A stretch of 55,908 nt of DNA from IMG/VR virus record IMGVR_UViG_3300037424_001372, positions 268,837 to 324,744 of that record. One strand, 5' to 3'. A program made the position numbers and the translations under genes. Origin of the DNA: a virus (taxonomy: Duplodnaviria > Heunggongvirae > Uroviricota > Caudoviricetes). The notes below the pieces were generated by a model. The model saw only the letters and a list, made by a program, of their open reading frames with translations, made no database searches and was not told the origin of the DNA. This document shows positions 13,096-48,206 of the stretch, piece after piece (position 1 is the first letter of the stretch; each line of letters begins with the position of its first letter).

Positions 13096-13392
13096 TTATG
13101 CCTCATTCAAAGGCAACCAAATATCGTCATCTACATAGCATTTAGCCCAACCAGCAAGTTCATTGTATTTTTTAACATATTGCTCTGCGGTTGCCCTATT
13201 TACACAAACAACATCATCGTGTTCATTATCGCGCCATCTAACGATCCCATAAGAACGAGTCATATTAAATAAATCCAATAGCTGGTCTTGTGCTTCACTT
13301 ACAGCTATTCGTCCTCTATTAAGGTTCATTAGTATTTCATGCATTTGTTCTTCCATATCGCCACTGTGTTTATTATTTACGTTAGCAAACAT
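13096..13392 (-). CDS. hypothetical protein (cassette-like gene)
   Basis: Stop codon in CCGTTATGCC; true start may be downstream (MEEQMHE). Confidence 0.65.
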   Translation of the reverse strand: MFANVNNKHSGDMEEQMHEILMNLNRGRIAVSEAQDQLLDLFNMTRSYGIVRWRDNEHDDVVCVNRATAEQYVKKYNELAGWAKCYVDDDIWLPLNEA

Positions 13393-13625
13393 TAAGAAAA
13401 CGGGTCACCAATAACCGACTTTCTAATTCTAATCTTCCTTAATGCATCATGTATATCCATTTCAATCAAACCGAATGATTTTTCTCCTAATAAGATTGAT
13501 GATTCCAATGTATCTGGAACTAATGCCATTGGTTTGTAAATAACTTGTACACCCATTTCTTGAAGTTCTTTAATAACTTCTTCATTTGATTTTAAATCTT
13601 CGTTGTTTAAATTGTGTAGTATCAT
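13392..13625 (-). CDS. hypothetical protein (cassette gene)
   Basis: Inside unit GTTAGCAAAC(13381)...GTTTGCTAAC(13645). Confidence 0.7.
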   Translation of the reverse strand: MILHNLNNEDLKSNEEVIKELQEMGVQVIYKPMALVPDTLESSILLGEKSFGLIEMDIHDALRKIRIRKSVIGDPFS

Positions 13626-13638
13626 AATAATTAACGTT

Positions 13639-13729
13639 TGCTAACTGGGTATATAAGCTATACCCTGTTAAGATTCATACTAATTTGATAATTCAGTGCT
13701 AGGTACGGCTCATATACCCACCGTTATAC
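13639..13729 (+). repeat. attC-like recombination site
   Basis: GCTAAC-t-GGGTATATAAGCTATACCCT ... AGGTACGGCTCATATACCC-acc-GTTATAC. Confidence 0.8.
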
Positions 13730-13736
13730 ACAATGT

Positions 13737-13943
13737 TTATTCTTCCTTTGGCTCATAAACCACTTCAAAATATTTTAAAAACCACTCTTCGTCATTATTA
13801 AATGTGTACCATTTACCATCGCCAAAGAAAATAGCAAATGTTTTCATTTCTGGTAAATACGCAGTTATAATTCCACCATCACCCTTTTTAACTATATCAC
13901 CAATATTTTCTTTGGCTATTGCTGTACCATGATATATTTCCAT
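13737..13943 (-). CDS. hypothetical protein (cassette gene)
   Basis: Inside unit GTTATACACA(13723)...TGTGTATAAC(13990). Confidence 0.7.
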   Translation of the reverse strand: MEIYHGTAIAKENIGDIVKKGDGGIITAYLPEMKTFAIFFGDGKWYTFNNDEEWFLKYFEVVYEPKEE

Positions 13944-13983
13944 ACTTTTAATGTTTTTAAAAAATTTTTACACAAAACACTGT

Positions 13984-14102
13984 GTATAACAACAAATATA
14001 AAACATTTTATTCGTTTTTCAAAATAAAGTTTATACTAATTGTTAAATTATTTTTTTATTTAAGTTTCGTGTAAAAACGTTTCATATTTGCAACCGTTAT
14101 AT
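13984..14102 (+). repeat. attC-like recombination site
   Basis: GTATAAC-aa-CAAATATAAAAC ... GTTTCATATTTG-caacc-GTTATAT. Confidence 0.8.
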
Positions 14103-14108
14103 GCAACC

Positions 14109-14570
14109 TTAAAGAACATCCTGCAAGTATTGTCCAGAATCTAAAACAATATGCTTGCAATATTTTTGTTCTTTAAGTTCATTAATCCATATATGCCAAT
14201 GCTTCATAAATGTACCTATAATGTCATAATGACTATCTCGCTCAATATATCTATCCAAATACTCATTTCTACATTCGTTTTTGGGATAAACAAGAGTTAT
14301 TTCAAATCCTTCATCATGTAACAATTTCATACCATCTGGTTCGGTTGCAATAAAAATATAATCTACTTTACCGAATTGCGTTTTCACATCTTCAATATAT
14401 TCTTTGAACAAACCCTTTTCTTTATACTTCCAATATTCTACTTCAACAGCTTTAATGTCAGTGTTGTTGCAAATATATGTCTTACCAGCACCACAAAAGG
14501 CAGCACATAACAACGTGTTATACGTTATAGCCGTTTCAGTGGTAATTTGTAAGTTCGGTTCTTCGTTCAT
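14109..14570 (-). CDS. P-loop NTPase/kinase-like protein (cassette gene)
   Basis: Walker A-like AFCGAGKT; N-terminus encoded within the attC. Confidence 0.65.
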   Translation of the reverse strand: MNEEPNLQITTETAITYNTLLCAAFCGAGKTYICNNTDIKAVEVEYWKYKEKGLFKEYIEDVKTQFGKVDYIFIATEPDGMKLLHDEGFEITLVYPKNECRNEYLDRYIERDSHYDIIGTFMKHWHIWINELKEQKYCKHIVLDSGQYLQDVL

Positions 14571-14636
14571 ATTTTTGTATTTAATGATAAATTTGTTCTC
14601 GTAATCGGCTATAACGCATACACGCAGCCGTTATCG
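14505..14636 (+). repeat. attC-like recombination site
   Basis: ACATAAC-aa-CGTGTTATACGTTATAGCCG ... CGGCTATAACGCATACACG-cagcc-GTTATCG; one extra unpaired T in the left arm. Confidence 0.85.
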
Positions 14637-14642
14637 TCAACC

Positions 14643-14972
14643 TTAACCGACACTATCCAAATCCTTTCCTTTGACCGCTTTATAAATTTCAATAATATCT
14701 TTTTGCTCTTTTATCCAGCGAAAGGCAACTGCGTAATACTTTCCATAACTCATTTCACCACAACCAACAAGGAAATCATTTTCGTTCCATTCAGTTACTG
14801 GAGTGTTGAAAAACAGTATTACTCCCTCCTTTACAAAGTAATTCATTTTAAAATTTTCAAACGGACTTTGACTTTCCTCTACCAATTTGAAGCCCTTACT
14901 AAGAAGAAATGCTGCCGATAACACGCCATATACTCCATTGGCGGGTTCGTGGGTATCCTTAGTTTCTGTCAT
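14643..14972 (-). CDS. hypothetical protein (cassette gene)
   Basis: Unit GTTATCGTCA(14630)...TGCCGATAAC(14922). Confidence 0.7.
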   Translation of the reverse strand: MTETKDTHEPANGVYGVLSAAFLLSKGFKLVEESQSPFENFKMNYFVKEGVILFFNTPVTEWNENDFLVGCGEMSYGKYYAVAFRWIKEQKDIIEIYKAVKGKDLDSVG

Positions 14973-15025
14973 TTTATTAAGTGTTTATTTGTTAGTGTTC
15001 CAAAACCACCACCTATTTTTTATAA

Positions 15026-15472
15026 TCAAAGAGATTTACGCATCCAAATAGCATTTGGTTCAGTTTTATGTTTGACCCAATCTTGATAACCACGTCTCTT
15101 ATACCATTCGTGCATCCAAGTACCGTTTTCAACCCACAAACATGATTTTGTAAACTTCATTTGGCGGCCAATTTCTTCTCTCAGTTCTTGCAATAAAGTT
15201 CCTAATCCGTTATTTCGCGCAGATTCTTTCACACTTAGCCAATCTAAGTAAATAGTTTCCGAATCATCTTTGTAGTAATAAACGCGACCAAATGCCAGCC
15301 CCGTTTCTTCCATTATCAAAAATGAATCTTGATTTGACTCTTTTTTAATATGAGTAATAAAACGGTGGTTAACACTATGTAGCCCCAATTTGGTGACAGT
15401 GATCGTTCCTTGGTTCGTAATTTCTTGTTTCATTTTCGCATAATGTATAAAATATAGGCGTAGCTTTTGCAA
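15026..15472 (-). CDS. GNAT-family N-acetyltransferase
   Basis: YLDWLSVKESARNNGLGTLL (motif A) and WYKRRGY; true start may be MKQEIT. Confidence 0.85.
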   Translation of the reverse strand: MQKLRLYFIHYAKMKQEITNQGTITVTKLGLHSVNHRFITHIKKESNQDSFLIMEETGLAFGRVYYYKDDSETIYLDWLSVKESARNNGLGTLLQELREEIGRQMKFTKSCLWVENGTWMHEWYKRRGYQDWVKHKTEPNAIWMRKSL

Positions 15473-15545
15473 GCACAGTTTTCACATTACCAACGTTATG
15501 GGTAAGCATATCGACACTCGACACGCCTACCCATTTGACAAAATT

Positions 15546-15788
15546 TTATAACTTTGAAAATAATTCGTTTTGTAATTCCTCTTTTGTTGCAAAAACTTTA
15601 TCTTCATCAATTGCTGAATAGCTTCCAGTCGAATAAACAACAGCTACGTTATTTTCTAACCCAGTACGTTTAAAAGATGAGTCCGAGAATTCGCCAATTA
15701 CAAAAGCAATTCCTTTAATTATGCCTTTTGTTGGCTCACTGTAATTCATGTAAAAAATTTCGTCCCCGATTTTAAATTTCGATTTCAT
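15546..15788 (-). CDS. hypothetical protein
   Basis: MKSKFKIGDEIF...VFATKEEL, SH3-like small phage protein pattern. Confidence 0.7.
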   Translation of the reverse strand: MKSKFKIGDEIFYMNYSEPTKGIIKGIAFVIGEFSDSSFKRTGLENNVAVVYSTGSYSAIDEDKVFATKEELQNELFSKL

Positions 15789-15830
15789 AATTTTGATTTT
15801 AAATTGTTAATATATTAGTAAATGTTATAA

Positions 15831-16055
15831 CTATATAATGCACTCATCGAGAGTAATTTCAAAAAGAACCATTGCATACTCCTTGTTTTTAAATGCAGAA
15901 CTAAAGCATCCTACATGGAATCTTATATCTAAGTCCGGGGAGTATAAAATGCAATGAATTGGAGGCAAGCTGCATGACTGACCTCTTGTTTTACAATTCA
16001 CAGGCTCCCAAATTATATTTTTGCGAATAATATTTTTCGTAGCATCTAACTCCAT
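15831..16055 (-). CDS. hypothetical protein
   Basis: Co-directional ORF. Confidence 0.55.
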   Translation of the reverse strand: MELDATKNIIRKNIIWEPVNCKTRGQSCSLPPIHCILYSPDLDIRFHVGCFSSAFKNKEYAMVLFEITLDECII

Positions 16056-16273
16056 TTTGTAAATATTGGTTTATTCAACACATCCAATTGGTCGACTGTA
16101 ACATATCCACCACATTTATTACATATTATGCTTAAATCTTCTGGTGGTATTTTATTTGTGTCGGTTGACCATTTGTTTCCACAAGAGCAATAACTACGCC
16201 TAACAAGAGCAAGCATATTCAATTGCGATTTCGTTTCAGTGGTGTCAATGTTGTTTGTTATATCTATTTTCAT
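16046..16273 (-). CDS. Zn-ribbon hypothetical protein
   Basis: CSCG...CNKCGG; N-terminus overlaps an attC arm (GCCTAAC at 16198). Confidence 0.6.
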   Translation of the reverse strand: MKIDITNNIDTTETKSQLNMLALVRRSYCSCGNKWSTDTNKIPPEDLSIICNKCGGYVTVDQLDVLNKPIFTKWS

Positions 16274-16331
16274 TCATGTAAATTAATGAGTTTGTAATTT
16301 CTATTCCGATAATGGCTTATACACAACCTCG

Positions 16332-16580
16332 TTAATTACATGGCTCGGCTAACCAACCTTTTGAAGCCGACCAAACGACCCAACTACCATAAGCCACGTG
16401 CATACCGCCAAAACATTTAGCAACCTGAACCGACCACGTGAAATTTTCACCAGTCAATATAGTTCCTGTTCCAAAATGCCTAAATCTATTACCTAAATGT
16501 TTTTTTGCTCGTTCAAGAACAAAAGCCTTGCAACCAACACGTGTTATAGTTAATTGTGGTAGCATCTTTAATTTGTTCAT
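16332..16580 (-). CDS. hypothetical protein
   Basis: Likely start MNKLKM; stop codon in a GTTA core. Confidence 0.6.
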   Translation of the reverse strand: MNKLKMLPQLTITRVGCKAFVLERAKKHLGNRFRHFGTGTILTGENFTWSVQVAKCFGGMHVAYGSWVVWSASKGWLAEPCN

Positions 16581-16593
16581 TTTTAGCGGTAAT

Positions 16594-16956
16594 TTAAAAA
16601 AACAACCTCGAAAGGTAACCATCGATCAATTCTTCACCAACGACACTAACCATATTCTCCGATTTTAATTTTAAAACTAAGTTTTTGAGTTCTTGGTGTT
16701 CTTCTTCAAATTGACATTTCATAAATTCAGCATTATCACAACGATGTGACCACAAATCAGGCATTAAATTGAGAAGGTCACAAAACTTCTGACAATCATC
16801 TTCATCTACTTCATCACCACATGTTTGAAGTATATCATTATTGCTAATAAACTGAACATTTGAATCATAATCACCAGTATCTGCAAGGGCATGCGTTTCC
16901 ACCTTAAAAGACCATTTATTTATTGACATATTGTTGAAAATTAGTTTGTTAAACAA
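16594..16956 (-). CDS. hypothetical protein
   Basis: Intact ORF; likely start MSINKW. Confidence 0.65.
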   Translation of the reverse strand: MFNKLIFNNMSINKWSFKVETHALADTGDYDSNVQFISNNDILQTCGDEVDEDDCQKFCDLLNLMPDLWSHRCDNAEFMKCQFEEEHQELKNLVLKLKSENMVSVVGEELIDGYLSRLFF

Positions 16957-16971
16957 ATAAAATACCTACAG

Positions 16972-17190
16972 CTAACATTTGTAGATAGGTTCGATTTCTC
17001 TACTAGTTAATGACATCCAATGATTATGTCCAAGTTTCCATTTTAATAATATTTTAAATTTAACACTCAATAAATAACTTGTGATGACAAAGTGTGGCAC
17101 CCAATAAGGGTTTCGTTTTTTAGCCAATAAACATGTTGAATTTACCTTTATATTCATCCAATCTGTTCTCTTATTACGGAAGTTTTCCAA
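16972..17190 (-). CDS. hypothetical protein
   Basis: Co-directional ORF. Confidence 0.5.
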   Translation of the reverse strand: MENFRNKRTDWMNIKVNSTCLLAKKRNPYWVPHFVITSYLLSVKFKILLKWKLGHNHWMSLTSREIEPIYKC

Positions 17191-17587
17191 TCACAGTTAT
17201 TTGATTAGGATAAAACGCAACAACATTTTCATCCAATATCACACCATCATATCCTTCTTCAATTAATCGATTTTTTAATTTTAAATCAATATAATTATAT
17301 GAATAATCATATCCATTATCATCTTTAATTGTGTCACCATCAGTGTTTCTAAATTTACCATCATCAGTATCTGATAAATCATATGGGTTTTTTAATTTAA
17401 AATTAATTTTAAATACATTCACTCCATATGTGTTTGCAAAACCATAATCCTTTGTACCATAAAAAACAGTATCTTCGTCAAATAGAATTTCATCATTATT
17501 TGTGCCGTGTAAATAAAAATCGTTTACCACTCTATTTTCATTAAGATATTCTCTTATGGTTGTCGCAATAATTTTTCTTAATTCCAT
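17174..17587 (-). CDS. ADP-ribosyltransferase-like (ART-PolyVal-like) protein
   Basis: YLHGT, FYGT...FANTYG, LKNPYDL and EGYDGVI...VVAFYPNQI motifs. Confidence 0.6.
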   Translation of the reverse strand: MELRKIIATTIREYLNENRVVNDFYLHGTNNDEILFDEDTVFYGTKDYGFANTYGVNVFKINFKLKNPYDLSDTDDGKFRNTDGDTIKDDNGYDYSYNYIDLKLKNRLIEEGYDGVILDENVVAFYPNQITVIGKLP

Positions 17588-17654
17588 TTGCGTTATATTT
17601 ATATATAAATATTCATAAATTAAAATTTATATCAATTATAGGTATCAACATCAC

Positions 17655-17909
17655 TCATAATACTCCCCATGATGCACCACAAGGAGTTGTACCATAACCA
17701 CATTCTCTTAATTGTGTTGCTATCCATTCAGCAAGTTCATCATTACTCATTTTTTGTAACATATCGTTTGATTTAATAATCAAACCAATCTCAAACATAA
17801 TATCGATTAATTTCTGTTCAGATTGTTTTTTAGACAGAATTAAACTATCAACTTTTTTCTCAATTGATTGTGATAATTCTAATATTTTTTCTACTTCTAA
17901 TGGACTCAT
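17655..17909 (-). CDS. hypothetical protein
   Basis: Intact ORF ending GYGTTPCGASWGVL. Confidence 0.75.
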   Translation of the reverse strand: MSPLEVEKILELSQSIEKKVDSLILSKKQSEQKLIDIMFEIGLIIKSNDMLQKMSNDELAEWIATQLRECGYGTTPCGASWGVL

Positions 17910-18257
17910 AATATTAAATTTTAATTAAATAATTCACTGTTAATTGATAATCTTAAATCATATTCTAATTCTTTCATTAGTTCAAATTGTAATAAGGAAA
18001 TTGAATAGAATAATGTTTTTTCCAATTTTTCATATAAAACATCGTCATAATTATTCAATACTTTAAATGGTAATATATCACCACTATCAGGTAAAAGCAT
18101 AAATTTAATTTTAATTAAAACCTAATCATTCCACTTGCTAAATATGTTGTGATTTTCTTTTGTTTTTATTTGTTCACAAATAATATTAATTTTCATTAAA
18201 TAATTCATCTTCTGGCAACAGTTTTATATTGCAGTTCGTTATGCTACTTTGCAACAA

Positions 18258-18446
18258 TTAGCACCAATATTGCACAATTATGTAATGTTGTGGTTCTCGG
18301 TACGTTTCTTTAACACGATATGCCGAATCAGGTGTTTCATAATCCTTGTCAACTATTTGGTAGCATGGCTCTGTTATCATCGAATTATTATCTTTCATTT
18401 CAGCAAGAATATTTACTATTCTTACAATCATATATCTTTCTTTCAT
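18258..18446 (-). CDS. hypothetical protein
   Basis: Co-directional ORF. Confidence 0.6.
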   Translation of the reverse strand: MKERYMIVRIVNILAEMKDNNSMITEPCYQIVDKDYETPDSAYRVKETYREPQHYIIVQYWC

Positions 18447-18573
18447 TTTGTAATTTATTAATGATAAAAAATACGAGTGTTAACAAACACAATCACATAA
18501 ATTGCTCAAATATTCATCAACTATTTTTACTGCATATTCGTACTTATGTTTTTCAGATAGAAATTTATGTTTG

Positions 18574-18858
18574 CTAATAACTGGCATAAATAACGCATGA
18601 ATTATCAGTTTTCGGAGCAATTCGAATTGATTTATCGTTACTCATATGCTGAATCTTCAAACTATCTTTATCAGAACGAATCATAAATCCACTCATTTTG
18701 ATAGTTGAGAAGTTATTATCATTATCTTCAGTCCAAAGAAGTTCACCATTTTCAGAATCAATGAGTTCGTAATGACTGAACTCTCCATTGTCCGTAAACT
18801 TTTCAATTATTAAAGGTTTCATATATTTATCGATTTTATTAATGTTAATTACATTCAC
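18574..18858 (-). CDS. hypothetical protein
   Basis: Co-directional ORF. Confidence 0.6.
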   Translation of the reverse strand: MNVININKIDKYMKPLIIEKFTDNGEFSHYELIDSENGELLWTEDNDNNFSTIKMSGFMIRSDKDSLKIQHMSNDKSIRIAPKTDNSCVIYASY

Positions 18859-18864
18859 AACAGT

Positions 18865-19548
18865 TTATGCACCATAAAAAGATGGCACATAACCACCTTG
18901 ATAGCATCCGACAATCGGGACCATATTATCTCCTTTAATATCAACTCCATCAATAGATGAAATCGATTTATACCAAGTTTTTTCAAATTGTTTGTCGATT
19001 TTTGACAATTCAACCAATAAATGAAATCCTCCGCGGGTTTGTAAAAAATGTAAACAATCCTCATTAATATGTTCAATTGCTTTATTTCTTACAACTTCCA
19101 ACTCCACACCATCAAAATCAATATCAAAAAACACTTTTCTACTGCAAGCCTTTTGTATTTCTGATAACATTTCTTGGTGTGGGTTATAACCACCATAAGG
19201 TTTCGTAATTAACTCAGCAAGTTTAATTAAGCCATTCTTTGCAGCTTTTTCATAACTTCTTGGGTTTGGGTTAATATAAATTGCAAGTGCTTCTTGTGGT
19301 ATTGGGTTATGTTTTTGATGATAATTCCCAACTTCGCACTCTAATTGTTGTATTTTTTCAAACAAAAACTCTTTAGTTGATGTGAATCGTTTTAATTGTT
19401 GTTTATCTGAACTAATATGAACAATATCTTTACAATATTTTGACCGTGCAAAGAGACAACAATAATATGCCTCGCCATTTTGCAATTCAGGGAGCCAATC
19501 AATAAATTTCAGCAACTTTTCTTTATCTTTTATAATTTGATAATTCAT
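18865..19548 (-). CDS. AEP/primase-polymerase-like protein
   Basis: FDIDFD (motif I) and [10 protein letters not shown] (motif II). Confidence 0.55.
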
Positions 19549-19733
19549 TATATTGTTTTTAAAATATTTTCATACTCATTAAACCTATGTTCTCTAATTG
19601 GTCTTGTTTTAGGTTCGGTTTCAAAATACAATAACAAACATGGTGAAATGTTTTTATATTTCTCCACATATTCAAAACGAATTAATTCACGATTCTTAAT
19701 ACGTTCTTTGATTTTATTGTGATATGGATACAT
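19548..19733 (-). CDS. hypothetical protein
   Basis: Coupled ORF (1-nt overlap). Confidence 0.7.
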
Positions 19734-19743
19734 TGATTTTTAA

Positions 19744-20166
19744 TTATAATCTAGTCTCTAAAAGTTTTTTGGTTGACTCAAATAAATCAACCATTTTCAA
19801 ATATTGCTCTTTGGTGATTTTATTCGTTTTGGTGTGAGAATCGATGGTAAACCACAAATCATTTAACTTACGATTTTTATCAATTGTAATCATGATTTTA
19901 TCATCATTACCAATATAAGTATTAATACTAAGACCTATAATTGAATTAAGATAAATTGAAGTAATTTCAACATAAGAAATTGATGTGTCATTGAAATTGA
20001 TTTTATAATACTTGTGGTCAAGAATTTCTTTAAGAAGTTTCTGATGACTATCTTCTTTTAATTTATCATTAGCCAATTTCTTAGCATGTAAATCAGATTC
20101 AATAGCAATGACATCATCAATGGATTTACCACGATATTTTTCTAAATATTTATGAATTTCGTTCAT
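19744..20166 (-). CDS. hypothetical protein
   Basis: Intact ORF downstream of the promoter motif at 20299-20324. Confidence 0.7.
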   Translation of the reverse strand: MNEIHKYLEKYRGKSIDDVIAIESDLHAKKLANDKLKEDSHQKLLKEILDHKYYKINFNDTSISYVEITSIYLNSIIGLSINTYIGNDDKIMITIDKNRKLNDLWFTIDSHTKTNKITKEQYLKMVDLFESTKKLLETRL

Positions 20167-20324: not shown

Positions 20325-20473
20325 AAACAACATTATCAATAAACATATGACCAACTAGAATTTATAATTATTCAATTTTTCAAATTTCCCTAAACTAAAT
20401 TCGTCATTATTTTTCACAATCAATTAGTTAATTGACATTGTTGATATATAATAGATAGTTAGCAAACATAAAA

Positions 20474-20650
20474 TTATTCACGCTTACCTCGTATTTCAAT
20501 ATCCGCACCAATTAACTGTTCAGGGCATTCCGTATGGTAGCCTTGTAATCTTGCCCAAAAATCTCGTTTAATCATATTAAGTTCTTCATCAGTTAATTGA
20601 TGCTTTACTTTCACACTAATTTCGTATTTGTATTCAAAAATTTCATCCAT
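20474..20650 (-). CDS. hypothetical protein (cassette gene)
   Basis: Unit GTTAGCAAA(20458)...TTTGCTAAC(20669); likely start MDEIFEY. Confidence 0.65.
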   Translation of the reverse strand: MDEIFEYKYEISVKVKHQLTDEELNMIKRDFWARLQGYHTECPEQLIGADIEIRGKRE

Positions 20651-20662
20651 AATTTTACGATT

Positions 20663-20755
20663 TGCTAACAAGCAATATATGTTATTGCCTATTAAGGTTT
20701 ATACTAATTTTTAAGTTTCGTGCTTGGCAACTACATATATTGCCATCCGTTATGT
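20663..20755 (+). repeat. attC-like recombination site
   Basis: TGCTAAC-aa-GCAATATATGTTATTGCC ... GGCAACTACATATATTGC-catcc-GTTATGT; close paralogue of 48114-48206. Confidence 0.85.
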
Positions 20756-20767
20756 GTAAGGCTAAAA

Positions 20768-21731: not shown

Positions 21732-21824
21732 TTATAACAACGTGTATAAAACATAACCAATTAAGGTATGTGGTTTATATCAAGCGTTGTGTATAGCTAC
21801 GTTTCATACACACAACCGTTATCG
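21732..21824 (+). repeat. attC-like recombination site
   Basis: TTATAAC-aa-CGTGTATAAAAC ... GTTTCATACACA-caacc-GTTATCG. Confidence 0.8.
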
Positions 21825-21830
21825 GCAACC

Positions 21831-22193
21831 TTAAAACAGCTCCGATATATCATTAAACTGTGATTTATGAATTTCACATTCTTTTGGCATTGGAATATTT
21901 TCATCATCACCTAAATCAAAATGATTTCCTTTAATTTGATTTTTAGGTGTATATAAAAAACATTTCTTTTCTGTGCAGTAAAGTAAATCAACTTTGCGTT
22001 CCCATTCACTACCGTTGTAATAATTACCATATATTTCGGTTTCTTTTTTATCCAAATTTTTACAATGGAAGCACGGTCTATCATTCAATGGATTTTTACT
22101 ACATGCTTTTTCATGGTATTCCATTTTAGACTTGCTTAGTCCGTGTTTTTTACAATGCTCGCAATAAAATACTTCTTTAGTTTTTGATTTCAT
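21831..22193 (-). CDS. Cys-rich Zn-binding hypothetical protein (cassette gene)
   Basis: YCEHCKK...HEKAC...CFHC; unit GTTATCGGC(21818)...GCCGATAAC(22224). Confidence 0.75.
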   Translation of the reverse strand: MKSKTKEVFYCEHCKKHGLSKSKMEYHEKACSKNPLNDRPCFHCKNLDKKETEIYGNYYNGSEWERKVDLLYCTEKKCFLYTPKNQIKGNHFDLGDDENIPMPKECEIHKSQFNDISELF

Positions 22194-22217: not shown

Positions 22218-22310
22218 CGATAACACGTAATATAAAAAATTGGTTATCAAACCGCTGTGGTAAATTTAAAGTGTCTGCAAAGCCAACTTTTTATATTACC
22301 ACCATTATGT
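22218..22310 (+). repeat. attC-like site with mutated core (ATT instead of GTT)
   Basis: CGATAAC-ac-GTAATATAAAAAATTGG ... CCAACTTTTTATATTAC-cacc-ATTATGT. Confidence 0.75.
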
Positions 22311-23497: not shown

Positions 23498-23614
23498 TCA
23501 GAGTGGGAGGAATCGAACCTCCGTTTAGCTCGTTAGCAAAGGTTTGCTTTCACATCTACCTTTTCTGCCGAAGTTATTTAGGCATCCCACTTATCCAATT
23601 TGCGGTACACTCTG
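23498..23614 (-). ncRNA. tRNA-like RNA with abnormal anticodon arm and ~40-nt variable insert
   Basis: Acceptor CAGAGTG/CACTCTG, D-arm, T-arm GGAGG-TTCGATT-CCTCC; no 7-nt anticodon loop. Confidence 0.7.
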
Positions 23615-23632
23615 TTTTATAAAAACAACTAC

Positions 23633-30982: not shown

Positions 30983-31171
30983 ATGAATGCAAATATATGT
31001 GAAGTTTTAAGGGAAAATCTAATAAAACAGTGTTCCACATATTCTACATTTACGGATCATTTCATGGATATGAATGTAAAACAATATTTTAGTTTTACAA
31101 TAACTGATATAAATGATGCATGGGATATGGAAGTATTATTAGCATCCCTATTAGAAAACACCCTTAAATAA
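30983..31171 (+). CDS. small hypothetical protein
   Basis: Member of the plus-strand mini-gene run. Confidence 0.5.
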   Translation: MNANICEVLRENLIKQCSTYSTFTDHFMDMNVKQYFSFTITDINDAWDMEVLLASLLENTLK

Positions 31172-31179
31172 AATTCAAT

Positions 31180-41116: not shown

Positions 41117-41126
41117 AATGATTTAA

Positions 41127-41495
41127 TTAAGAATGGTATTTGTGTGGGTATTGCCAACCTTTTGTTTTTGATTTTTTGATTGGTTTGAGTCTATATGAAT
41201 CATCAATCTTTTTAATTAAAAATGGTTTAACAACTGATTCTGTTTTTATTTTAGATAATTGCTCTTCTACATTCTCAAGGATTAATTGTTCGGGGTTATG
41301 ATGAACAATGAGAATATCATTTGAGCTATTTTCAATTTCCCTAATTAGTTCGGTTGTTTTACCAATACCAGCATGACAACCAACAATAATAATTTTTTTA
41401 TTATTAAAACCATTAGATTCTTTATCTAAAATTGAACCAATAACCTTATTAAGATTAGTTGGTTTTTGAATAGGATTATCCATATCTATCACCAA
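41127..41495 (-). CDS. hypothetical protein with isolated Walker A-like motif
   Basis: IIIVGCHAGIGKTT; too short for a full NTPase fold. Confidence 0.55.
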   Translation of the reverse strand: MVIDMDNPIQKPTNLNKVIGSILDKESNGFNNKKIIIVGCHAGIGKTTELIREIENSSNDILIVHHNPEQLILENVEEQLSKIKTESVVKPFLIKKIDDSYRLKPIKKSKTKGWQYPHKYHS

Positions 41496-41498
41496 TAT

Positions 41499-41732
41499 TT
41501 ACAGTTTATGTAATAATTCTTCAAATATTTCTTGAATTTCTTCACCTTGTTTTTTAATGTCGTTAGCAACCTCTTTACGAATCATAATACTTTTTAAAAA
41601 AGAAGTATAGAATCCATCAATGGTATTATATTCGGCCATAGGGTGCATACCATCGCCATAGTTATTAATTAAATGGCAAGCAAGTTCTTTTTCTTCATCA
41701 GTTAATTCAATATCTCTTAAAGCAATGCTCAT
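41499..41732 (-). CDS. hypothetical protein
   Basis: Intact ORF. Confidence 0.7.
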   Translation of the reverse strand: MSIALRDIELTDEEKELACHLINNYGDGMHPMAEYNTIDGFYTSFLKSIMIRKEVANDIKKQGEEIQEIFEELLHKL

Positions 41733-41744
41733 GGTGATTTAATT

Positions 41745-42029
41745 TCAAATTATATGTGCAGTTACGGCATCTAAGGTTAAATAACCTCTTTTAATATCTT
41801 TACACATATTAGCAAGACGTTGTTTCGAACCACATGGGTCGGCATCGTTATACATAACAGCACGAGTAGTTAGATACTCTTTAGCATCTTTAACAGAATC
41901 AAATATTTTAACACCAGTATAAGAACCATTATAAGAACCATTCAAGCCCTTAACATTTTCTAAATTAAATGCATTGAGACTATTTATTTGGTAATGAGTC
42001 GGGGCTGTTGCAGTAATTTGGCATTTCAT
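41745..42029 (-). CDS. hypothetical protein
   Basis: ORF behind the promoter motif at 42062-42087. Confidence 0.7.
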   Translation of the reverse strand: MKCQITATAPTHYQINSLNAFNLENVKGLNGSYNGSYTGVKIFDSVKDAKEYLTTRAVMYNDADPCGSKQRLANMCKDIKRGYLTLDAVTAHII

Positions 42030-42100
42030 AATAATATGATTTAATTACAATTTATAATTAATACGAAAATTTCGTACAATGGTTACAGTATTAAAATAAA

Positions 42101-42137
42101 AAACCCCATAATGTTTTTTTAGGACATTATGAGGTTT
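42101..42137 (-). terminator. intrinsic terminator
   Basis: AAACC(C/T)CATAATGT stem pair, with a T-run following on the minus strand. Confidence 0.65.
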
Positions 42138-42139
42138 AG

Positions 42140-42368
42140 TTTGTTTTTCGGTAATACGCAACTATCTGCAATATACTTAGCCACCAATTGTGTTAAGGGT
42201 CGTACATTCCAAAACTATGTTTTTAGTCAAGACTTAAATGGATTCGTCATTCAATGGTAGTATGTTATAAATGTTCCGGTTCCAAACCGAAACTCCGTAA
42301 TGAACTTCTAAGTCCTACCATATTGACACGTCTGTCAATAGCCACCAAAGAAGCGTTTCCCTCCGCAA
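42140..42368 (-). ncRNA. putative stand-alone structured ncRNA
   Basis: ORF-free interval between the promoter (42377-42402) and the terminator; several hairpins. Confidence 0.5.
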
Positions 42369-42376
42369 TTATATAA

Positions 42377-42402
42377 TACGAACATTGTTGTTTAATGTTA
42401 CA
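42377..42402 (-). promoter_or_regulatory. phage promoter motif (identical 26-mer at 44397-44422)
   Basis: TACGAACATTGTTGTTTAATGTTACA. Confidence 0.8.
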
Positions 42403-43531
42403 AATATTGTTGATATTCTGATTTATCCAATTCACGAACCACTTTTAATTTATTTGTTCTGACTTTTCCATCACATTCTTTGGGAACAACAATTGAATTA
42501 ATATCTACTTCTACTTCAATAATTGCCAAATCTTTCCAATTTAAACCAAATTTAACTGCGAAAAACAATTCTGACACATGTAATCCAATATCACATGAAT
42601 TATCTAAATTAGAGGAACATTCACCATCAATTATTTCACCAATATGATATTTAAAATCTTTTAGATAATCTGAAAAATATTGTTCATCGCATTCTTTATG
42701 AACTGCTTTATAAAACAATAAAATATTATCGTTTTTCTTGGTTATTTTATAATTTTTTAAATAAAAATCAATTGTTGGGTTAGTGTTAAATGTATCATAT
42801 CGAATAATTTGACTGGTGTCATTTAATATAACATTTGAAATATTTTCAATTTCATTCGAAATGAAAATATAATTATAACCAAAACAATTAATAATACCAT
42901 TTGAACGAAATTTATTTACTTGGGATGAACCCCCCATATAATTTACTTGGGATGAACCCCTCATTTCTTTTACTTGGGATGAACCCCCCATATAATTTAC
43001 TTGGGATGAACCCCCCATATAATTTACTTGGGATGAACCCCACATTTCTTTTACTTGGGATGAATCCCCCATATAATTTACTTGGGATGAACCCCTCATT
43101 TCTTTTACTTGGGATGAACCCCCCATATAATTTACTTGGGATGAACCCCCCATATAATTTACTTGGGATGAACCCCACATTTCTTTTACTTGGGATGAAC
43201 CCCCCATATAATTTACTTGGGATGAACCCCCAATATAATTTACTTGGGATGAACCCCCCATATAATTTACTTGGGATGAACCCCTCATTTCTTTTACTTG
43301 GGATGAATCCCTCATTTCTTTTACTTGGGATGAATCCCTCATTTCTTTTACTTGGGATGAATCCCTCATTATAATAACAGCATTATGAGATAATATTACA
43401 TCAGCATTTACATATAATTTATCTAATAAAATTGGTTCATTCATATCACCACCAATAATAAATATTTCACCAGAATAATCTAATGATATATTATTTAATT
43501 CTTCTTGGGTATTGACAATAATCTTATTCAT
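42398..43531 (-). CDS. 9-aa tandem-repeat (beta-solenoid-like) protein with DUF7666-like C-terminal domain
   Basis: 17 x (G/D)SSQV(KEM|NYM)x repeats; C-terminus FYKAV...YHIGE...C..GLHVS...DGKVRTNKLKVVRE. Confidence 0.75.
   Translation of the reverse strand: MNKIIVNTQEELNNISLDYSGEIFIIGGDMNEPILLDKLYVNADVILSHNAVIIMRDSSQVKEMRDSSQVKEMRDSSQVKEMRGSSQVNYMGGSSQVNYIGGSSQVNYMGGSSQVKEMWGSSQVNYMGGSSQVNYMGGSSQVKEMRGSSQVNYMGDSSQVKEMWGSSQVNYMGGSSQVNYMGGSSQVKEMRGSSQVNYMGGSSQVNKFRSNGIINCFGYNYIFISNEIENISNVILNDTSQIIRYDTFNTNPTIDFYLKNYKITKKNDNILLFYKAVHKECDEQYFSDYLKDFKYHIGEIIDGECSSNLDNSCDIGLHVSELFFAVKFGLNWKDLAIIEVEVDINSIVVPKECDGKVRTNKLKVVRELDKSEYQQYL
42911..43369 (-). repeat. 27-nt coding tandem repeat, 17 units
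   Basis: Invariant TTTACTTGGGATGAA core in every unit. Confidence 0.95.
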
Positions 43532-43621
43532 ATTTTTTTTTGTTTATATTATGATACGAACATTGCGGTTAAATGTTACAAAAAATCCCTTACATTGCTG
43601 TAAGGGGGATTTTAATTAATA

Positions 43622-44365
43622 TTATTCTTCTTCGGACTCGGACAATGCTTCGATGATTTCTTCTTCGGTTGCTTTCCAAAATTTTAAGAAAACCTCTGCA
43701 ATAGATTCTTGGGCAAGATAATCGTTTTCGGCTCTTTCATCCAAATAAATAACTTCTTTGGTTTGAATATTTACCTTGGCAATAGTACAACCTGCTTCAT
43801 CATCATCTTCTGTTGACCAAGCATCAATATGTATGAAACCATCAGCTTCAAAGTCATTACGAATTTCTGTCCAAGCACTTTGCAATAAATTTACTTCAAC
43901 ATCTTCATCTTCCGAATCGAATACAATATTCTCATCAATGCCCATTTCATCAACGGCAAAGTCTTGAATCACATCAAGTAGGTTTACAATACCTTCCAAA
44001 TCATTTGCAAGTAATTGGATGTGGGATTGAGAAAATTCAACAATTGCATTCAATGCTTGTTTTTGTTTTTTCAATTCAACCCAATCAATGTTTTTAATTA
44101 AAGACAATGCTTTGACTTGGACATCCTCCGAAAGAGGTTTAACTTGTTTGTTTGGCTTTTGGGAAAAGAGAACTTCATTGACTATTGAACCATCTTCTAA
44201 TCGAATGCCTTCAATAATATCAATGGACATTGGGTAAAGGTCTTTAAAATCACCATTGTCATCACAAGCATCAATGACAACCAAATCATTGTCATTCAAA
44301 TGAGCAATTAAATCTCTTACTTGTCCAAGGGTTTGAATTTCATCACCAAATTTTAATGCTTTCAT
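43622..44365 (-). CDS. acidic hypothetical protein
   Basis: 247-aa ORF between a promoter (44397-44422) and a terminator/promoter pair (43555-43612). Confidence 0.75.
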   Translation of the reverse strand: MKALKFGDEIQTLGQVRDLIAHLNDNDLVVIDACDDNGDFKDLYPMSIDIIEGIRLEDGSIVNEVLFSQKPNKQVKPLSEDVQVKALSLIKNIDWVELKKQKQALNAIVEFSQSHIQLLANDLEGIVNLLDVIQDFAVDEMGIDENIVFDSEDEDVEVNLLQSAWTEIRNDFEADGFIHIDAWSTEDDDEAGCTIAKVNIQTKEVIYLDERAENDYLAQESIAEVFLKFWKATEEEIIEALSESEEE

Positions 44366-44480
44366 GTTGAGTGTATTAATTATTGTATATGGGTTATACG
44401 AACATTGTTGTTTAATGTTACAAGTATTTGCAACAGTTATTTGGGTCGGTGGTTTATTATTGTATTTTTAGGTTGTGTCA

Positions 44481-44723
44481 TTACCATTCCACAGCAAACT
44501 TCCATCCGTTTAAGATAATGGTTTTTGCATCTATTTTTGGTTGTCTCATATTTGTGGGTATTGTGGCTTTTAATTCACCATCTTTATAAAATTCTGTTCT
44601 ATAACCAACAAAACCACCTTTATCAGATACTTTTACTTTTTTCGCTTTAAGAGTAATTAACTCACCAATCTTTGCTTTTGTCATAATAAAATTCATTAAA
44701 TTGTTTATTAACAACATAAACAT
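44481..44723 (-). CDS. hypothetical protein
   Basis: ORF; true start probably MTKAKIG. Confidence 0.6.
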   Translation of the reverse strand: MFMLLINNLMNFIMTKAKIGELITLKAKKVKVSDKGGFVGYRTEFYKDGELKATIPTNMRQPKIDAKTIILNGWKFAVEW

Positions 44724-44784
44724 ATAAAAAAATGGATGTAAATATTAATACGATTCCAAATTAAATTTGTTACATAGTTTTTAA

Positions 44785-45537
44785 TTAAAAATTCAATAAT
44801 TCCTTTATAATGCCATTCAACCATTGAACCTTGTCGTTATTTAATTTAGTATCATTGGTCATATATAATCGTTTATTAATTTCAATCATTATTGATTGTA
44901 CATTAACATCTTTTTGATAAAATTTGGTAGGTACCAATGAACCTGAATAGGGATTGTTAGTTTCAACAGTCAATCCATATTTTTTGAAGTGGTTAATCAA
45001 ATAAAATGTTAAAAAATTGGGGGTGTGAAAATTATCAATACCAATACAAATGTCGGGTCGATTTGAATCATTTTCATACCACAATCTATTATCATTGAAC
45101 GAATGACAATCAATGATAATTGCCTGACCATTTTTATTTAAGATTGATTGAACTACATCTGTTAGATTACTATGATAAGGAATGAAGTAATTTGTAAGCA
45201 CATCCCAATAATCTGAATAATCAAATTTTCTCAATTTTTTATTGTCAATAGTATGAGTATAGTATAAGCCACGGCCATAACTATCCATTGTTTCACCTAT
45301 GATAAAACGTTCAACATCACAAAACAACCTATTAAAATCACAAGTAAATTTTTTAATATTATCTACTTGAAAGATTTGATTGGTTGCGATATCTGTTGAA
45401 AGCAATAGTTCTTTATTCAATTGCACTTCATCTAACAAGAACGAATCTTTATTAGGTATATGCTTTGATGAGTGGGGTATGTGCAATAAAATACTATCTT
45501 TAATTGTATCACCGAATAAATTTAAATCATTTACCAT
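44785..45537 (-). CDS. N-formylglutamate amidohydrolase (FGase family)
   Basis: LHIPHSS, TDIAT, NRLFCDVERF, PYH, IDCHSF, RPDICIG, NNPYSG, SIMIEINKRLYM. Confidence 0.9.
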   Translation of the reverse strand: MVNDLNLFGDTIKDSILLHIPHSSKHIPNKDSFLLDEVQLNKELLLSTDIATNQIFQVDNIKKFTCDFNRLFCDVERFIIGETMDSYGRGLYYTHTIDNKKLRKFDYSDYWDVLTNYFIPYHSNLTDVVQSILNKNGQAIIIDCHSFNDNRLWYENDSNRPDICIGIDNFHTPNFLTFYLINHFKKYGLTVETNNPYSGSLVPTKFYQKDVNVQSIMIEINKRLYMTNDTKLNNDKVQWLNGIIKELLNF

Positions 45538-45628
45538 ATAAGTGAAATAAAAATTGGTTTGACTTGTACAATACTATACGAATCAAACCAATTAAAGTTA
45601 CAAATCAGATAATGGTTTTAGTTATAAT

Positions 45629-46213
45629 TTATCCATTGTATTTACGATAAATAACATCTTGTTTACCATATTTTTCTCTAAATTTACCATCTGGGTCATA
45701 TTCAGGGTTATAGCTATCTCTTTTATATTCTTCAAATCCAGCATTTTTATATAGTTGTGTTAAAAATCCATCGAAATGATCTAAATATTTACCACCGTTT
45801 TTAACAGCATTTTTAATTAAATCCTGACCAATGCCAGTTATATCAGGTTCATTATTATGTACAGCAACAATCTCAGAATATTGCCCATCATCAAATTTCT
45901 TTAAAGCATATCCAATGTTTAATTCAGGTACTTTAAACAATCTCATTTGACTTAAATCAGATACACTATAATGAGTTAACATGTCAGGATGTTTACTTTT
46001 CATTAATGAATCATAAAATTCTTGTGGGGTTGTGCTTAATTCATTTTTATTTAAAGCACTTAAAACAAACTGTTTTTTATTTTCATCACCCTCATTCAAA
46101 TTGGTTTTAAATAAAATAGTATTGTTGTAATGCTCAAACATTTTTAATTTAAAACGATGTACATCATTAGTTTTGGTTTTATTAACCTTATCGAACATTT
46201 CAAATAACTTCAT
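45629..46213 (-). CDS. GNAT-like domain protein
   Basis: IVAVHNNE..ITGIGQDLIKNAVKNGGKYLDHFDGFLTQLYKNAGF. Confidence 0.55.
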   Translation of the reverse strand: MKLFEMFDKVNKTKTNDVHRFKLKMFEHYNNTILFKTNLNEGDENKKQFVLSALNKNELSTTPQEFYDSLMKSKHPDMLTHYSVSDLSQMRLFKVPELNIGYALKKFDDGQYSEIVAVHNNEPDITGIGQDLIKNAVKNGGKYLDHFDGFLTQLYKNAGFEEYKRDSYNPEYDPDGKFREKYGKQDVIYRKYNG

Positions 46214-46364
46214 AATTATTAATATTTATAATAATAAATACAATAAAAAAACGTTAACTAATCAAAGTTAACGTTTTAAATTTTAAAATATTATGACACC
46301 TTTCCACCTAATTGAATATCAAAAGAGCCATTGTGAATGTTACAAGGGTTTTAACTAAAATTGA

Positions 46365-47414
46365 TTAGACAGTTTCCAATAAATATTCCAAAACCTTTGA
46401 ATCTTTTTCGCGCCTTACTTCTGGTGATGCAATGTTTCTGTTATCGTCAAAAATATAGGAGTTGATTCCATTATAAATCAGCCAATTATTTACTTTGCCA
46501 TTATAACCCAAAGTAGTGTGGTTTGCTTCATAATTGATCTTATCAAGAATACTGTTTACTTTTTCTTGATTGGTTTCGATCAATTTGTTGTACATTGCCT
46601 GTTCTTTTACAGACATTGTGGCAACATCCTTTTCTTTCTCTTTGTTAACAATGCCCATAACATTAAGGACCTCACGAACCCTATCTTCAACATTGGCAAC
46701 AAAGCTACCACCAAGTTTCTCATACCTTGATATAATGGTTTTATTAACATTTTCAAAATTGGCAACCAAGTCGATCAATATGTTTTGAAATTGTTCCAAA
46801 GAATGTAAAATTGAATTGGTGTGTTTACCCTCTAACGAAAGATTAAACCTTTTCATTTCTTTTATTGGTATTGTCAGGCCATTTGAGCAAATTAATCTGT
46901 GATAACCTGCAATACCTTTGTATTTGGTCAAACCGTTGTAAGAGTGTTGAAAGTTCCAAATGAATTTAATCTCATCATTTGTACCGTCCATTTTATATGA
47001 AAACCTTGGGTCTTCAATAACAAAATCACCATAAAAACGTGCATGGTTGGTGTGGCTGTAAGTTGCCTTATAAGCAATGCCAAGGGTTTTGAAAATTTCT
47101 TCAACCTTTGGAAAGATTTCAGAATTTGGAACAAGTTCATAAACATTCGAACAGTAGTTCAAATCAATTTCAGAATCAATCTTTTTTACCTTTGGGTTTT
47201 CATCCAACATTGTCTGAAATTCGGTTGGCGTTAAAGTCTCTTTCATTAAAATAAGTTCTTCATTCGAGAAATAAGGAACTTTTTGAGAAATAACCCCACG
47301 AACGATTTTGGTATATTCACTGTTAGTTCTACGTGGATTGTCAATCAATTCCACTGGAAAACAAAGTTCTTCAAGTGAACAAGTTGTTGTGCCCATTTTT
47401 AGTTTCTTAGCCAT
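46365..47414 (-). CDS. DUF932-like protein
   Basis: Y.LVPN..IF, QHSYNG, GYHRLICSNGL, ...WLIYNGIN pattern. Confidence 0.55.
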   Translation of the reverse strand: MAKKLKMGTTTCSLEELCFPVELIDNPRRTNSEYTKIVRGVISQKVPYFSNEELILMKETLTPTEFQTMLDENPKVKKIDSEIDLNYCSNVYELVPNSEIFPKVEEIFKTLGIAYKATYSHTNHARFYGDFVIEDPRFSYKMDGTNDEIKFIWNFQHSYNGLTKYKGIAGYHRLICSNGLTIPIKEMKRFNLSLEGKHTNSILHSLEQFQNILIDLVANFENVNKTIISRYEKLGGSFVANVEDRVREVLNVMGIVNKEKEKDVATMSVKEQAMYNKLIETNQEKVNSILDKINYEANHTTLGYNGKVNNWLIYNGINSYIFDDNRNIASPEVRREKDSKVLEYLLETV

Positions 47415-47593
47415 GATAGTGCTTTTAATTGGTTTCTGTGTATAATACGATTCTAATTAAAGTTTGTTACAGGTTTTATTTAAAATTATTTGCATTGGCG
47501 AGTGCTAAAATTGAAGTTTTTGTTTTCATAATAAATTTATTTAAAGTTGATAATTCTGTTCTTTGTAATCGGCAGTTTTCATATTGCCAACCG

Positions 47594-47761
47594 TTATAAC
47601 CGATAAAATTTTAACCACATGAAACAACCAAACGGTAGTGGTACTGTGGTCAATAAATGCCAGAATATAAATCCAAGCGCAAATAAAGCATCATCAGTTT
47701 CATGTGGTTTTACCATCATTTTAATAAATCCGTATATCGGTATAAAGTATGTCCATTTCAT
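47594..47761 (-). CDS. 55-aa membrane peptide (cassette gene, missing from ORF track)
   Basis: MKWTYFIPIYGFIKMM...LKFYRL*; unit GTTATAACC(47593)...GGTTATAAC(47786). Confidence 0.6.
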   Translation of the reverse strand: MKWTYFIPIYGFIKMMVKPHETDDALFALGFIFWHLLTTVPLPFGCFMWLKFYRL

Positions 47762-47779
47762 AATATAAAATTTTACAGG

Positions 47780-47874
47780 TTATAACAAGGCGTATAATAA
47801 AGTTTGCTATCAGCAGTTGTACATAATTTGAAAGTTTCTACAACCAAACCTTCTCATACACCCAACCGTTAGCA
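47780..47874 (+). repeat. attC-like recombination site
   Basis: TTATAAC-aa-GGCGTATAATAAAGTTTG ... CAAACCTTCTCATACACC-caacc-GTTAGCA. Confidence 0.8.
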
Positions 47875-47878
47875 AACA

Positions 47879-48100
47879 TTAAGAACCAACCTCTCTAACA
47901 TTTGATGGTGGTACTGTATAATATTTATTTTCTACTTCATCGTGTAAATATACCTTACCACCCTTTGTCCACTTAATTAAACGTAACTCAGTTTTACTAA
48001 ATATTATTTTACGCAATCCACCATCAAAAGCCAAATCTTTTTTATTAGTAACATATACCATTTTTCCTATTGCTTGGTCTATAAAATCCTTTGTTGTCAT
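47879..48100 (-). CDS. hypothetical protein (cassette gene)
   Basis: Unit GTTAGCAAAC(47868)...GTTTGCTAAC(48120). Confidence 0.75.
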   Translation of the reverse strand: MTTKDFIDQAIGKMVYVTNKKDLAFDGGLRKIIFSKTELRLIKWTKGGKVYLHDEVENKYYTVPPSNVREVGS

Positions 48101-48113
48101 AATAATTAACGTT

Positions 48114-48206
48114 TGCTAACAAGCAATATATGTAATTGCCTATTAAGGTCTATACTAAATTTCAACGTTCATGCAAGGCAACTACATATATTGCTGACCA
48201 TTAGGC
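48114..48206 (+). repeat. attC-like site with mutated core (ATTAGGC)
   Basis: TGCTAAC-aa-GCAATATATGTAATTGCC ... GGCAACTACATATATTGC-tgacc-ATTAGGC. Confidence 0.8.

Follow-up and report, generated by a model that had tools for sequence, protein, structure and literature searches.

The window considered here, 55,908 nucleotides of DNA with a G+C content of ~28%, is the final 56 kb of the 324.7-kb phage record IMGVR_UViG_3300037424_001372 of IMG/VR, which at the DNA level shows only weak similarity to Cellulophaga phages and to a 462-kb uncultured phage. The genes of the window are mostly small and on the minus strand, and the elements described below are therefore read on the minus strand; positions are those of the window unless given as genome positions. 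Among these genes lie two single-gene cassettes, P0001 and P0002, which are 34 kb apart and bracketed by the same exact 18-mer and the same exact 23-mer, and which are probably two cassettes of a phage-borne, integron-like gene-cassette system.

The 18-mer GTTAGCAAACATTAAGAA is present in exactly two copies, at 13381 and 47868, and the 23-mer CATAATAATTAACGTTTGCTAAC in exactly two copies, at 13623 and 48098, with no more copies found at up to two mismatches for the 18-mer or up to four for the 23-mer. The initial annotation had described the stretches 13381-13645 and 47868-48120 as cassettes with the same left end and the same right end, the right end being a complete leader up to the ATG, and both descriptions hold: the 23-mer is composed of a box termed U (GTTAGCAAACGTTAA), a 5-nt leader and the ATG. 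In P0001 this unit is located at 13623..13645 on the minus strand, as are all elements of the two cassettes, and is an exact duplicate of 48098-48120 that also occurs in 8 other contigs. The open reading frame (ORF) at 13392..13625 codes for 77 aa with no function assigned and has same-length homologues that are 70-86% identical, and is followed by a box termed D plus 3 nt at 13381..13398 (sense strand TTCTTAATGTTTGCTAAC), which includes the stop codon TAA and is an exact duplicate of 47868-47885. 5' of P0001, an 85-nt attC-like imperfect hairpin at 13642..13726 has the TAAC of the cassette before it at one end and the GTTA of U at the other. P0002 has its U box with leader and ATG at 48098..48120, an ORF for 73 aa, likewise with no function assigned, at 47879..48100 and its D box plus 3 nt at 47868..47885. 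An 87-nt hairpin is located 5' of it at 48117..48203, while the 89-nt hairpin on its 3' side (47783..47871) belongs to a different family and leads the next cassette (ORF 47594-47761). Beyond what had been noted before, the two ends are inverted complements of each other: the sense-strand D end of both cassettes, TTAATGTTTGCTAAC, is the inverted complement of the U end over 15 nt with a single G.T, and in P0001 the D box at 13381..13398 pairs with the U box at 13631-13645 over these 15 nt with the G.T at position 11.

The 77-aa and 73-aa proteins were thought to be unrelated, and nothing found here speaks for a relationship. BLASTP of P0001 against P0002 gives no alignment at E<=100, hhalign profile-profile comparison of the two families gives a probability of 0.3%, and the predicted order of secondary structure elements differs, with helix-strand-strand-strand-helix for P0001 (a weak model, pLDDT 62) and helix-strand-helix-helix-strand-strand-strand-strand for P0002 (a confident model, pLDDT 86). 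The comparison of profiles and structures, set beforehand as the refuting test, thus gives no sign that P0001 and P0002 are diverged homologues. Both are real conserved genes with same-length homologues of 70-94% identity.

A third cassette of the same end family (20458..20669, minus strand; ORF 20474-20650, 58 aa) is the last cassette of its array and has the U box GTTAGCAAATCGTAAAATT and the D box AATTTTATGTTTGCTAAC, which pair with a 1-nt bulge and the G.T; this U/D allele is also found in L041, L043 and L050. The 87-nt hairpin 5' of it (20666..20752, minus strand) is 86% identical to the hairpin at 48117-48203, and the two sit between unrelated genes, in line with the earlier description of near-identical hairpins near 20663 and 48114 with different flanking genes.

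Paired end boxes are found throughout the cassettes of the system and are not peculiar to P0001 and P0002. The U box reads GTTA-N6-GT and the D box AT-N6-TAAC, and the two form a self-complementary pair of ~15 nt in which position 11 is a fixed G.T. In 879 kb, comprising the phage record and related contigs, there are 55 U/D pairs with complementary N6, as compared with 0-2 in each of ten shuffles, and of ~69 box pairs with 10 Watson-Crick pairs and pairing at position 12, 57 have G in U and T in D at position 11. There are dozens of different N6 sequences, which covary between U and D, as do positions 13-15, with TTCC/GGAA, GCAGCA and TACAAC as examples of covarying end alleles. As the end boxes covary, cassettes can be recognized and roughly aged from their sequence alone. 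Boxes pair over 14.9 nt on average with the far end of their own cassette and over 5.0 nt with the opposite box of the same hairpin (n=44), and pairing with the own end rather than across the hairpin is the signature of circularly permuted integron cassettes. A G or GG follows TAAC at most junctions. A loose genome-wide scan for GTTA...TAAC inverted repeats was discarded as noise, with 153 matches versus 150-186 in shuffles, and as a scan for any inverted repeat flanking genes is too weakly enriched (20 versus 9 expected at >=12 nt), the boxed pairs were picked by motif.

The cassettes are separated by imperfect hairpins, 55 of them unique, which fall into two length classes of 85-90 nt and 113-128 nt. 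Their stem, ~20 bp long, shows compensatory changes from one family to another; an internal loop of 4-5 by 1-2 nt adjoins TAAC/GTTA, and bulged bases are absent. A G.T is kept at stem position 14 in 41 of the 55. With symmetric scoring, the gene strand of the 55 hairpins has 119 G.T versus 15 A.C, the gene strand is more stable than its complement in 46 of them, and the elements are always co-oriented with the genes. The outer boxes agree with those of attC sites, as they read xxxTAAC...GTTAxxx over 85-128 nt, compared with R'' RYYYAAC and R' GTTRRRY over 57-141 nt in attC. A promoter consensus common to all hairpin families was not found. On the gene strand the anatomy of a cassette is hairpin (85-128 nt), U, short leader, ORF and D, and the 'identical scaffold' of P0001 and P0002 is their common U/D allele, the commonest in the system (N6 = GCAAAC), together with one leader variant that they have in common.

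The scaffold is indeed reusable, as had been suggested. The exact 23-mer is present in 7 other viral contigs and in one contig of a metagenome-assembled genome, the only match in a bacterial genome, which is 5 kb of phage-like DNA; it precedes five further ORFs of 67-123 aa that are unrelated mutually and to P0001 and P0002 and most of which end in TAATGTTTGCTAAC. A search with the motif of the hairpin loop, a criterion independent of the downstream sequence, yielded 21 contigs (plus two unrelated-sequence matches), in ~13 of which the hairpin is followed by GTTAGCAAAC. Leaders of the GCAAAC family diverge after nt 12 and D changes accordingly; because leaders and D vary among these contigs, the 23-nt identity represents one sub-allele of a common family.

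With respect to the unit that is exchanged, the proposal of a swap exactly from ATG to stop is not borne out. The 3' identity of P0001 and P0002 reaches 4-5 nt into both ORFs (last codon TCT plus one T), and in other cassettes the ATG is found from +3, inside U, to beyond +25 of the boundary and the stop codon at several offsets relative to the D box. The homologue of P0001 on L052 keeps hairpin, U, ORF and D with both neighbours differing, and the homology between G000 and L052 extends from the TAAC 5' of the hairpin to just past D. G002 and G003 have the same left border, the TAAC 5' of the hairpin. The hairpin family tracks the downstream U box, being the same family upstream in 9/10 and downstream in 0/10 GCAAAC cassettes. 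The P0002 family is found in the scaffold in G000 and, with mutations, in L053, with a decayed D box of another allele in L054, and without the scaffold in ordinary operons of other phages (L055, L056), which indicates that the gene is older than the scaffold or more widespread and that it is an ordinary gene captured or exported rather than made in place. Equally, that the ends are the cassettes' own paired recombination-site boxes in dozens of covarying alleles, and that the record is without reverse transcriptase or tyrosine recombinase, a look for a reverse transcriptase or recombinase in the rest of the genome having been proposed, argues against the view of the initial annotation that ORFs are built within the scaffold.

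A recombinase is, on the other hand, linked to the arrays of relatives. In L060, L035, L045, L050 and L065, a tyrosine recombinase gene of 265-271 aa starts 41-56 nt past the last D box on the same strand, and G006 has a recombinase stump behind a hairpin. The enzyme is compact and Xer/IntI-like, with NF040815 'tyrosine recombinase/integron integrase' (XerA/integron integrase) and TIGR02249 as the best models, and has >1,100 homologues, with ~40%-identical copies in Bacteroidota chromosomes. In one of these, a Catalinimonas chromosome (L064, JAQFIL010000001.1, 698391-719233), a homologous recombinase precedes an array that runs in its direction and shows the same pairing of own ends. Here position 11 is A.C on the gene strand, and in 8/8 inter-cassette elements the antisense strand gives the more stable fold. 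The asymmetry thus follows the polarity of the array and not the mRNA, an observation from one bacterial array that favours folding of single-stranded DNA, as in attC recombination, over a purely RNA-level role; a role of the folds in mRNA only is made less likely by this opposite strand asymmetry. Compared with L064, the phage ORFs are inverted relative to the asymmetry and point towards the recombinase, and the co-orientation seen in classical integrons is not found. Due to this inversion the hairpin, and with it the site, is located 5' of the ORF and supplies its leader, which is the reason why the identity between cassettes extends up to the ATG.

The far boundary of the L064 array is formed by the reverse transcriptase of a group II intron, encoded on the other strand. 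A similar arrangement is seen with attC-targeting introns in integrons.

In the proposed cassette system, the recombinase encoded at the array ends of relatives would cut the TAAC/GTTA boxes of a site folded as single-stranded DNA, and cassettes would be excised and inserted as circles. In the circle, U, D and hairpin would join as one long stem composed of R stem, small internal loop, L stem and terminal loop, the G.T/A.C asymmetry would choose the strand that folds, and the site 5' of the phage ORF would supply the leader and possibly a promoter. The step that first joins an ORF to the scaffold is left unexplained by this reading.

Several observations weigh against such a system. No tyrosine recombinase of any type is found in the 324.7-kb record or in G001-G005: the record has no PF00589 match, and tblastn with the recombinases of four relatives has no match in it. 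The recombinase of the relatives scores below the curated cut-offs of NF040815 and TIGR02249, the TIGR02249 match reaching 147-151 bits versus a cut-off of 265 and being split in two stretches. The sites are without the classical extrahelical bases and have a fixed G.T at R-stem position 11 and L-stem position 14, and their attC likeness derives from boxes, pairing and layout rather than from the IntegronFinder covariance model. Between homologous cassettes the hairpins are less conserved than the ORFs, a pattern also compatible with exchange through homologous recombination. The polarity argument comes from a single bacterial array, and with the stable phage fold on the mRNA strand an added RNA or promoter role on the phage is possible. 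Finally, one sequencing run (DNA, contigs only), which probably stems from the source sample, was compared with the array; neither an excision circle nor a presence/absence polymorphism with exact borders is seen in its contigs, which, aligned to the array, give only short-sided joints from repeats or other phages that are not evidence on excision.

A doubtful reading, though one to be taken seriously, regards the elements as modules of the type of the promoter-early stem-loop (PeSL) cassettes of T4-type phages, with hairpin, U and leader as a terminator, promoter and translation-start unit between genes, ORFs shuffled by homologous recombination without a site-specific recombinase, and U-D pairing that would act in the mRNA through pairing of 5' and 3' ends or as a processing stem of the RNase III type. 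PeSLs are, as the present elements, repeated stop-to-start modules with G-T pairs in their stem-loops, found in regions of small ORFans in large lytic phages with unrelated ORFs between near-identical modules (PMC2839356, PMC4122927), and the hairpins here equally are stem-loops that extend from stop to next start upstream of ORFans in plastic regions. PeSL modules are shuffled between phages, minicircles have been reported, and the modules are defined by a sigma-70 promoter plus terminator and recombine by homology (PMC2839356, PMC4122927). The constant co-orientation of elements and genes and the G.T excess and higher stability of the mRNA strand on the phage would fit such modules, as would one long element with TTTG-N19-TATATTTG before its U box, the ATG and N-terminal codons of the next ORF held by long-class hairpins, and most hairpin-bearing contigs showing no recombinase. 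However, an asymmetry antisense to the genes, as in L064, is not predicted by an mRNA function, the recombinase start lies 41-56 nt past the last D box in five independent contigs, and the hairpin families have no promoter consensus in common. TAAC/GTTA boxes, cassette-specific complementarity of own ends across the ORF and a linked recombinase, the first two the signature of circularly permuted cassettes, are absent from PeSLs.

Rather improbable is an active cassette-building step in which arbitrary ORFs would receive, at their start and stop codons, a master site composed of hairpin, R'' box and leader as well as the complementary far box. The cassettes in which exact ends of 23 nt and 14-18 nt enclose at least seven unrelated ORFs would be recent products of this step. 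If true, such a step would make the genesis of integron cassettes directly tractable.

Quite improbable are small transposon-like units with GTTA...TAAC terminal inverted repeats, mobilized by a transposase such as the IS607-like TnpA or by an HUH enzyme of the host that would use the hairpins as substrate. The 15-nt terminal inverted repeats that bracket each unit and the G or GG at most junctions would suit them, and the record has three IS607-like pairs of the serine recombinase TnpA and a putative TnpB, at genome positions 204393-206213 (+), 234406-236110 (-) and 249005-250842 (-), all outside the window (TnpA ~190-200 aa; the ~400-424-aa partner was taken as TnpB by size, pairing and a TnpB-like copy in G004). 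However, TnpA was rejected as the cassette recombinase since neither U/D boxes nor hairpins flank the IS607-like copies, a Y1 HUH transposase (PF01797) is not found in the record, the arrays of relatives are linked to a tyrosine recombinase and not to TnpA, and the cassettes form head-to-tail arrays with no target duplications. That P0001 and P0002 are duplicates of one ancestral cassette which kept its ends, its ORF having diverged beyond recognition, has next to no probability, as identical ends and similar ORF lengths (77 and 73 aa) are countered by the lack of any detectable homology in the BLASTP and hhalign comparisons, the differing secondary-structure orders, the good conservation of each family, the scaffold-free occurrence of the P0002 family and the five more unrelated ORFs in the same scaffold.

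The cassette system is closest to integrons and CALINs, clusters of attC sites without an integrase. Common to them are head-to-tail single-gene cassettes between imperfect palindromes from ...TAAC to GTTA..., first bases of a cassette that are complementary to its own far box and not to the adjacent box, an ORF that fills the cassette and one site family around unrelated ORFs (PMC4889954, PMC9892861), and the arrays of the relatives abut a tyrosine recombinase of the Xer/IntI clade, as in integrons. As the phage record has no tyrosine recombinase it resembles a CALIN, with at least nine hairpin sites in the window and no adjoining IntI integrase, nor any integrase in the record, a likeness that comes from layout and not from an attC-model score. 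Small CALINs have been reported in virulent phages, so far with 2-4 sites (PMC9892861). In contrast to integrons, the recombinase of the phage relatives is of 265-271 aa, below the IntI model cut-offs, and is encoded downstream of the cassettes and co-directionally with them. Where integron sites have extrahelical bases, the present sites show fixed G.T wobbles and a small internal loop, their R stem is at least 15 nt long and not 7, and the phage ORFs are inverted, with the site 5' of the gene carrying its leader.

The rAID-1 clusters of Bacteroidales likewise combine a XerD-like tyrosine recombinase with arrays of small genes that run in one direction and are separated by repetitive, integron-like sequences (Ross et al. 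2019, bioRxiv 10.1101/471110). They are bacterial elements with the recombinase 5' of the genes and immunity genes as cargo (bioRxiv 10.1101/471110). The Catalinimonas array has a rAID-1-like layout, a likeness by layout and not by recombinase sequence, whereas in the phage relatives the recombinase is 3' of the array and the ORFs are inverted relative to the sites, and the present record does not show the rAID-1 layout. Nor does the record resemble a derivative of IS200/IS605/IS607 elements, with no PF01797 match and IS607-like copies without U/D boxes. Unlike in PeSLs, the present hairpins have no common promoter, and their asymmetry follows array polarity in the bacterial relative. What sets the system apart from integrons and CALINs, PeSLs and rAID-1 is thus the combination of a compact recombinase, a long covarying R stem, fixed G.T and inverted ORFs.

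Vibrio cholerae repeats (VCRs) and other homogeneous attC families of sedentary chromosomal integrons place near-identical sites on unrelated ORFs, the classical observation behind the unsolved genesis of cassettes. By analogy, unrelated ORFs in one scaffold would be the phage counterpart of VCR-type attC families, with the differences that, owing to the inverted ORF, the translation leader as far as the ATG belongs to the common part, and that the same allele is spread over many phage genomes and not over one chromosome.

Further cassettes and hairpins of the window, all on the minus strand, are the following. The cassette next to P0001 (13723..13990; ORF 13737-13943, 68 aa) has its own end pair GTTATACACAGTGTTT / AAACATTGTGTATAAC, and the 113-nt long-class hairpin at 13987..14099 carries TTTG-N19-TATATTTG just before the U box, a Bacteroidota-type promoter pattern and as such a candidate promoter. 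Upstream of P0002, the cassette ORF at 48216..48356 (46 aa) has an end pair of its own, TTAGGCACAGTAAA / TTTATTGTGCCTAA. The 20.4-24.7 kb array has 87-nt hairpins at 21735..21821 and 22221..22307, the latter leading the cassette with ORF 21831-22193 and the end pair GTTATCGGC / GCCGATAAC. An isolated cassette at 4709..4993 (ORF 4710-4976, 88 aa; end pair GTTATAAAACGTTTA / TAAATGTTTTATAAC) is led by a 113-nt hairpin at 4990..5102. The similar cassette ends reported at 14096, 14630 and 21818 are present and read TTAAGGTTG-NNN-ATAAC on the sense (minus) strand immediately after the stop codon. Hairpins of 113-128 nt (e.g. L034, L035, L036, L041, L043 and L045) have an ATG in the loop and encode a common N-terminal peptide of ~20 residues (roughly ..NE.E.P....GAV), which from this ATG is read in frame through the U box, so that unrelated cassette proteins may share a leader peptide.

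Directly 3' of the last D box of its array, at 20395..20457 on the minus strand, lies an array-terminal motif of ~60 nt (TTATATATCAACAATGTCA..AACTAATTGATT..), which has three copies in the genome, each ending an array (the other two at genome positions 227669-227740 (+) and 242830-242898 (-)). A short Cys-rich ORF, or what is left of one, comes next, at the position that the recombinase gene occupies in relatives. The motif weakly resembles the recombinase-proximal spacers of relatives and may be attI-like. The 98-aa ORF after P0001 (13096-13392, minus strand) starts with an ATG inside the D box (TAATG overlap), and its first 20 codons resemble the loop of the common-family hairpin (..TGCATGAA..ACCTTAATAG..); a decayed site may have become coding sequence here.

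Pfam and PHROGs searches with ten cassette ORFs gave no usable match, and an Rfam scan of the window detected two tRNAs only and nothing on the cassette elements. Use of the neighbouring DUF932 gene as bait for a syntenic relative found none; LR756500 has the genes at 25.5-28 kb in common, without cassette homologues. A second repeat family upstream of many genes reads TTGTAAC-N15-TCGTAT(A/T)A on the gene strand, then AACCAATTAAA plus ATG, with sites, among others, at 9636, 11717, 12300, 20279, 28133, 29271, 30171, 32510, 33283, 43535, 44742, 47424, 49843, 50595, 52188, 52826, 53142, 53582, 54490, 54984, 55280 and 55732, and looks like a phage-specific promoter plus leader. ORF 42398-43531, a weak match to DUF7666, contains sixteen tandem 27-nt units (9-residue repeats) at 42833-43453. 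A series of small paralogous ORFs (60-70 aa) at 30983-31771 (+) is encoded by tandem units of ~200 nt that are 79-85% identical. At ~23500-23620 (-), a tRNA-like stretch below the Rfam gathering score has a clear T arm and acceptor 3' half (GGTTCGATTCCTCC...) with a TTTGCTAAC box within an oversized anticodon or variable region. The IS607-like elements are unusual passengers in a lytic-looking jumbo phage, which also has a solo TnpB-like gene at genome positions 240128-241348 (-), outside the window. In G004 (IMGVR_UViG_3300015607_005580, ~1304-2881, locus L007), a TnpB-only insertion sequence lies inside a cassette, between the ...TTCTTTAA of the ORF and the remaining D box (TGTTTGCTAAC), i.e. 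3' of TTTAA.

With respect to significance, how an ORF gets joined to an attC site is the long-standing question on integron cassettes, and the present system offers a clean natural series, in which one base-exact scaffold allele encloses no fewer than seven unrelated ORFs of separate phage genomes; of these ORF families, at least one is also found scaffold-free in other phages. Large lytic phages of Bacteroidota-like hosts and bacterial chromosomes thus probably have an integron-like gene-exchange system in common, the phage version of which is inverted such that each cassette carries its own upstream site and leader, and in which a G.T/A.C code may set which strand folds.

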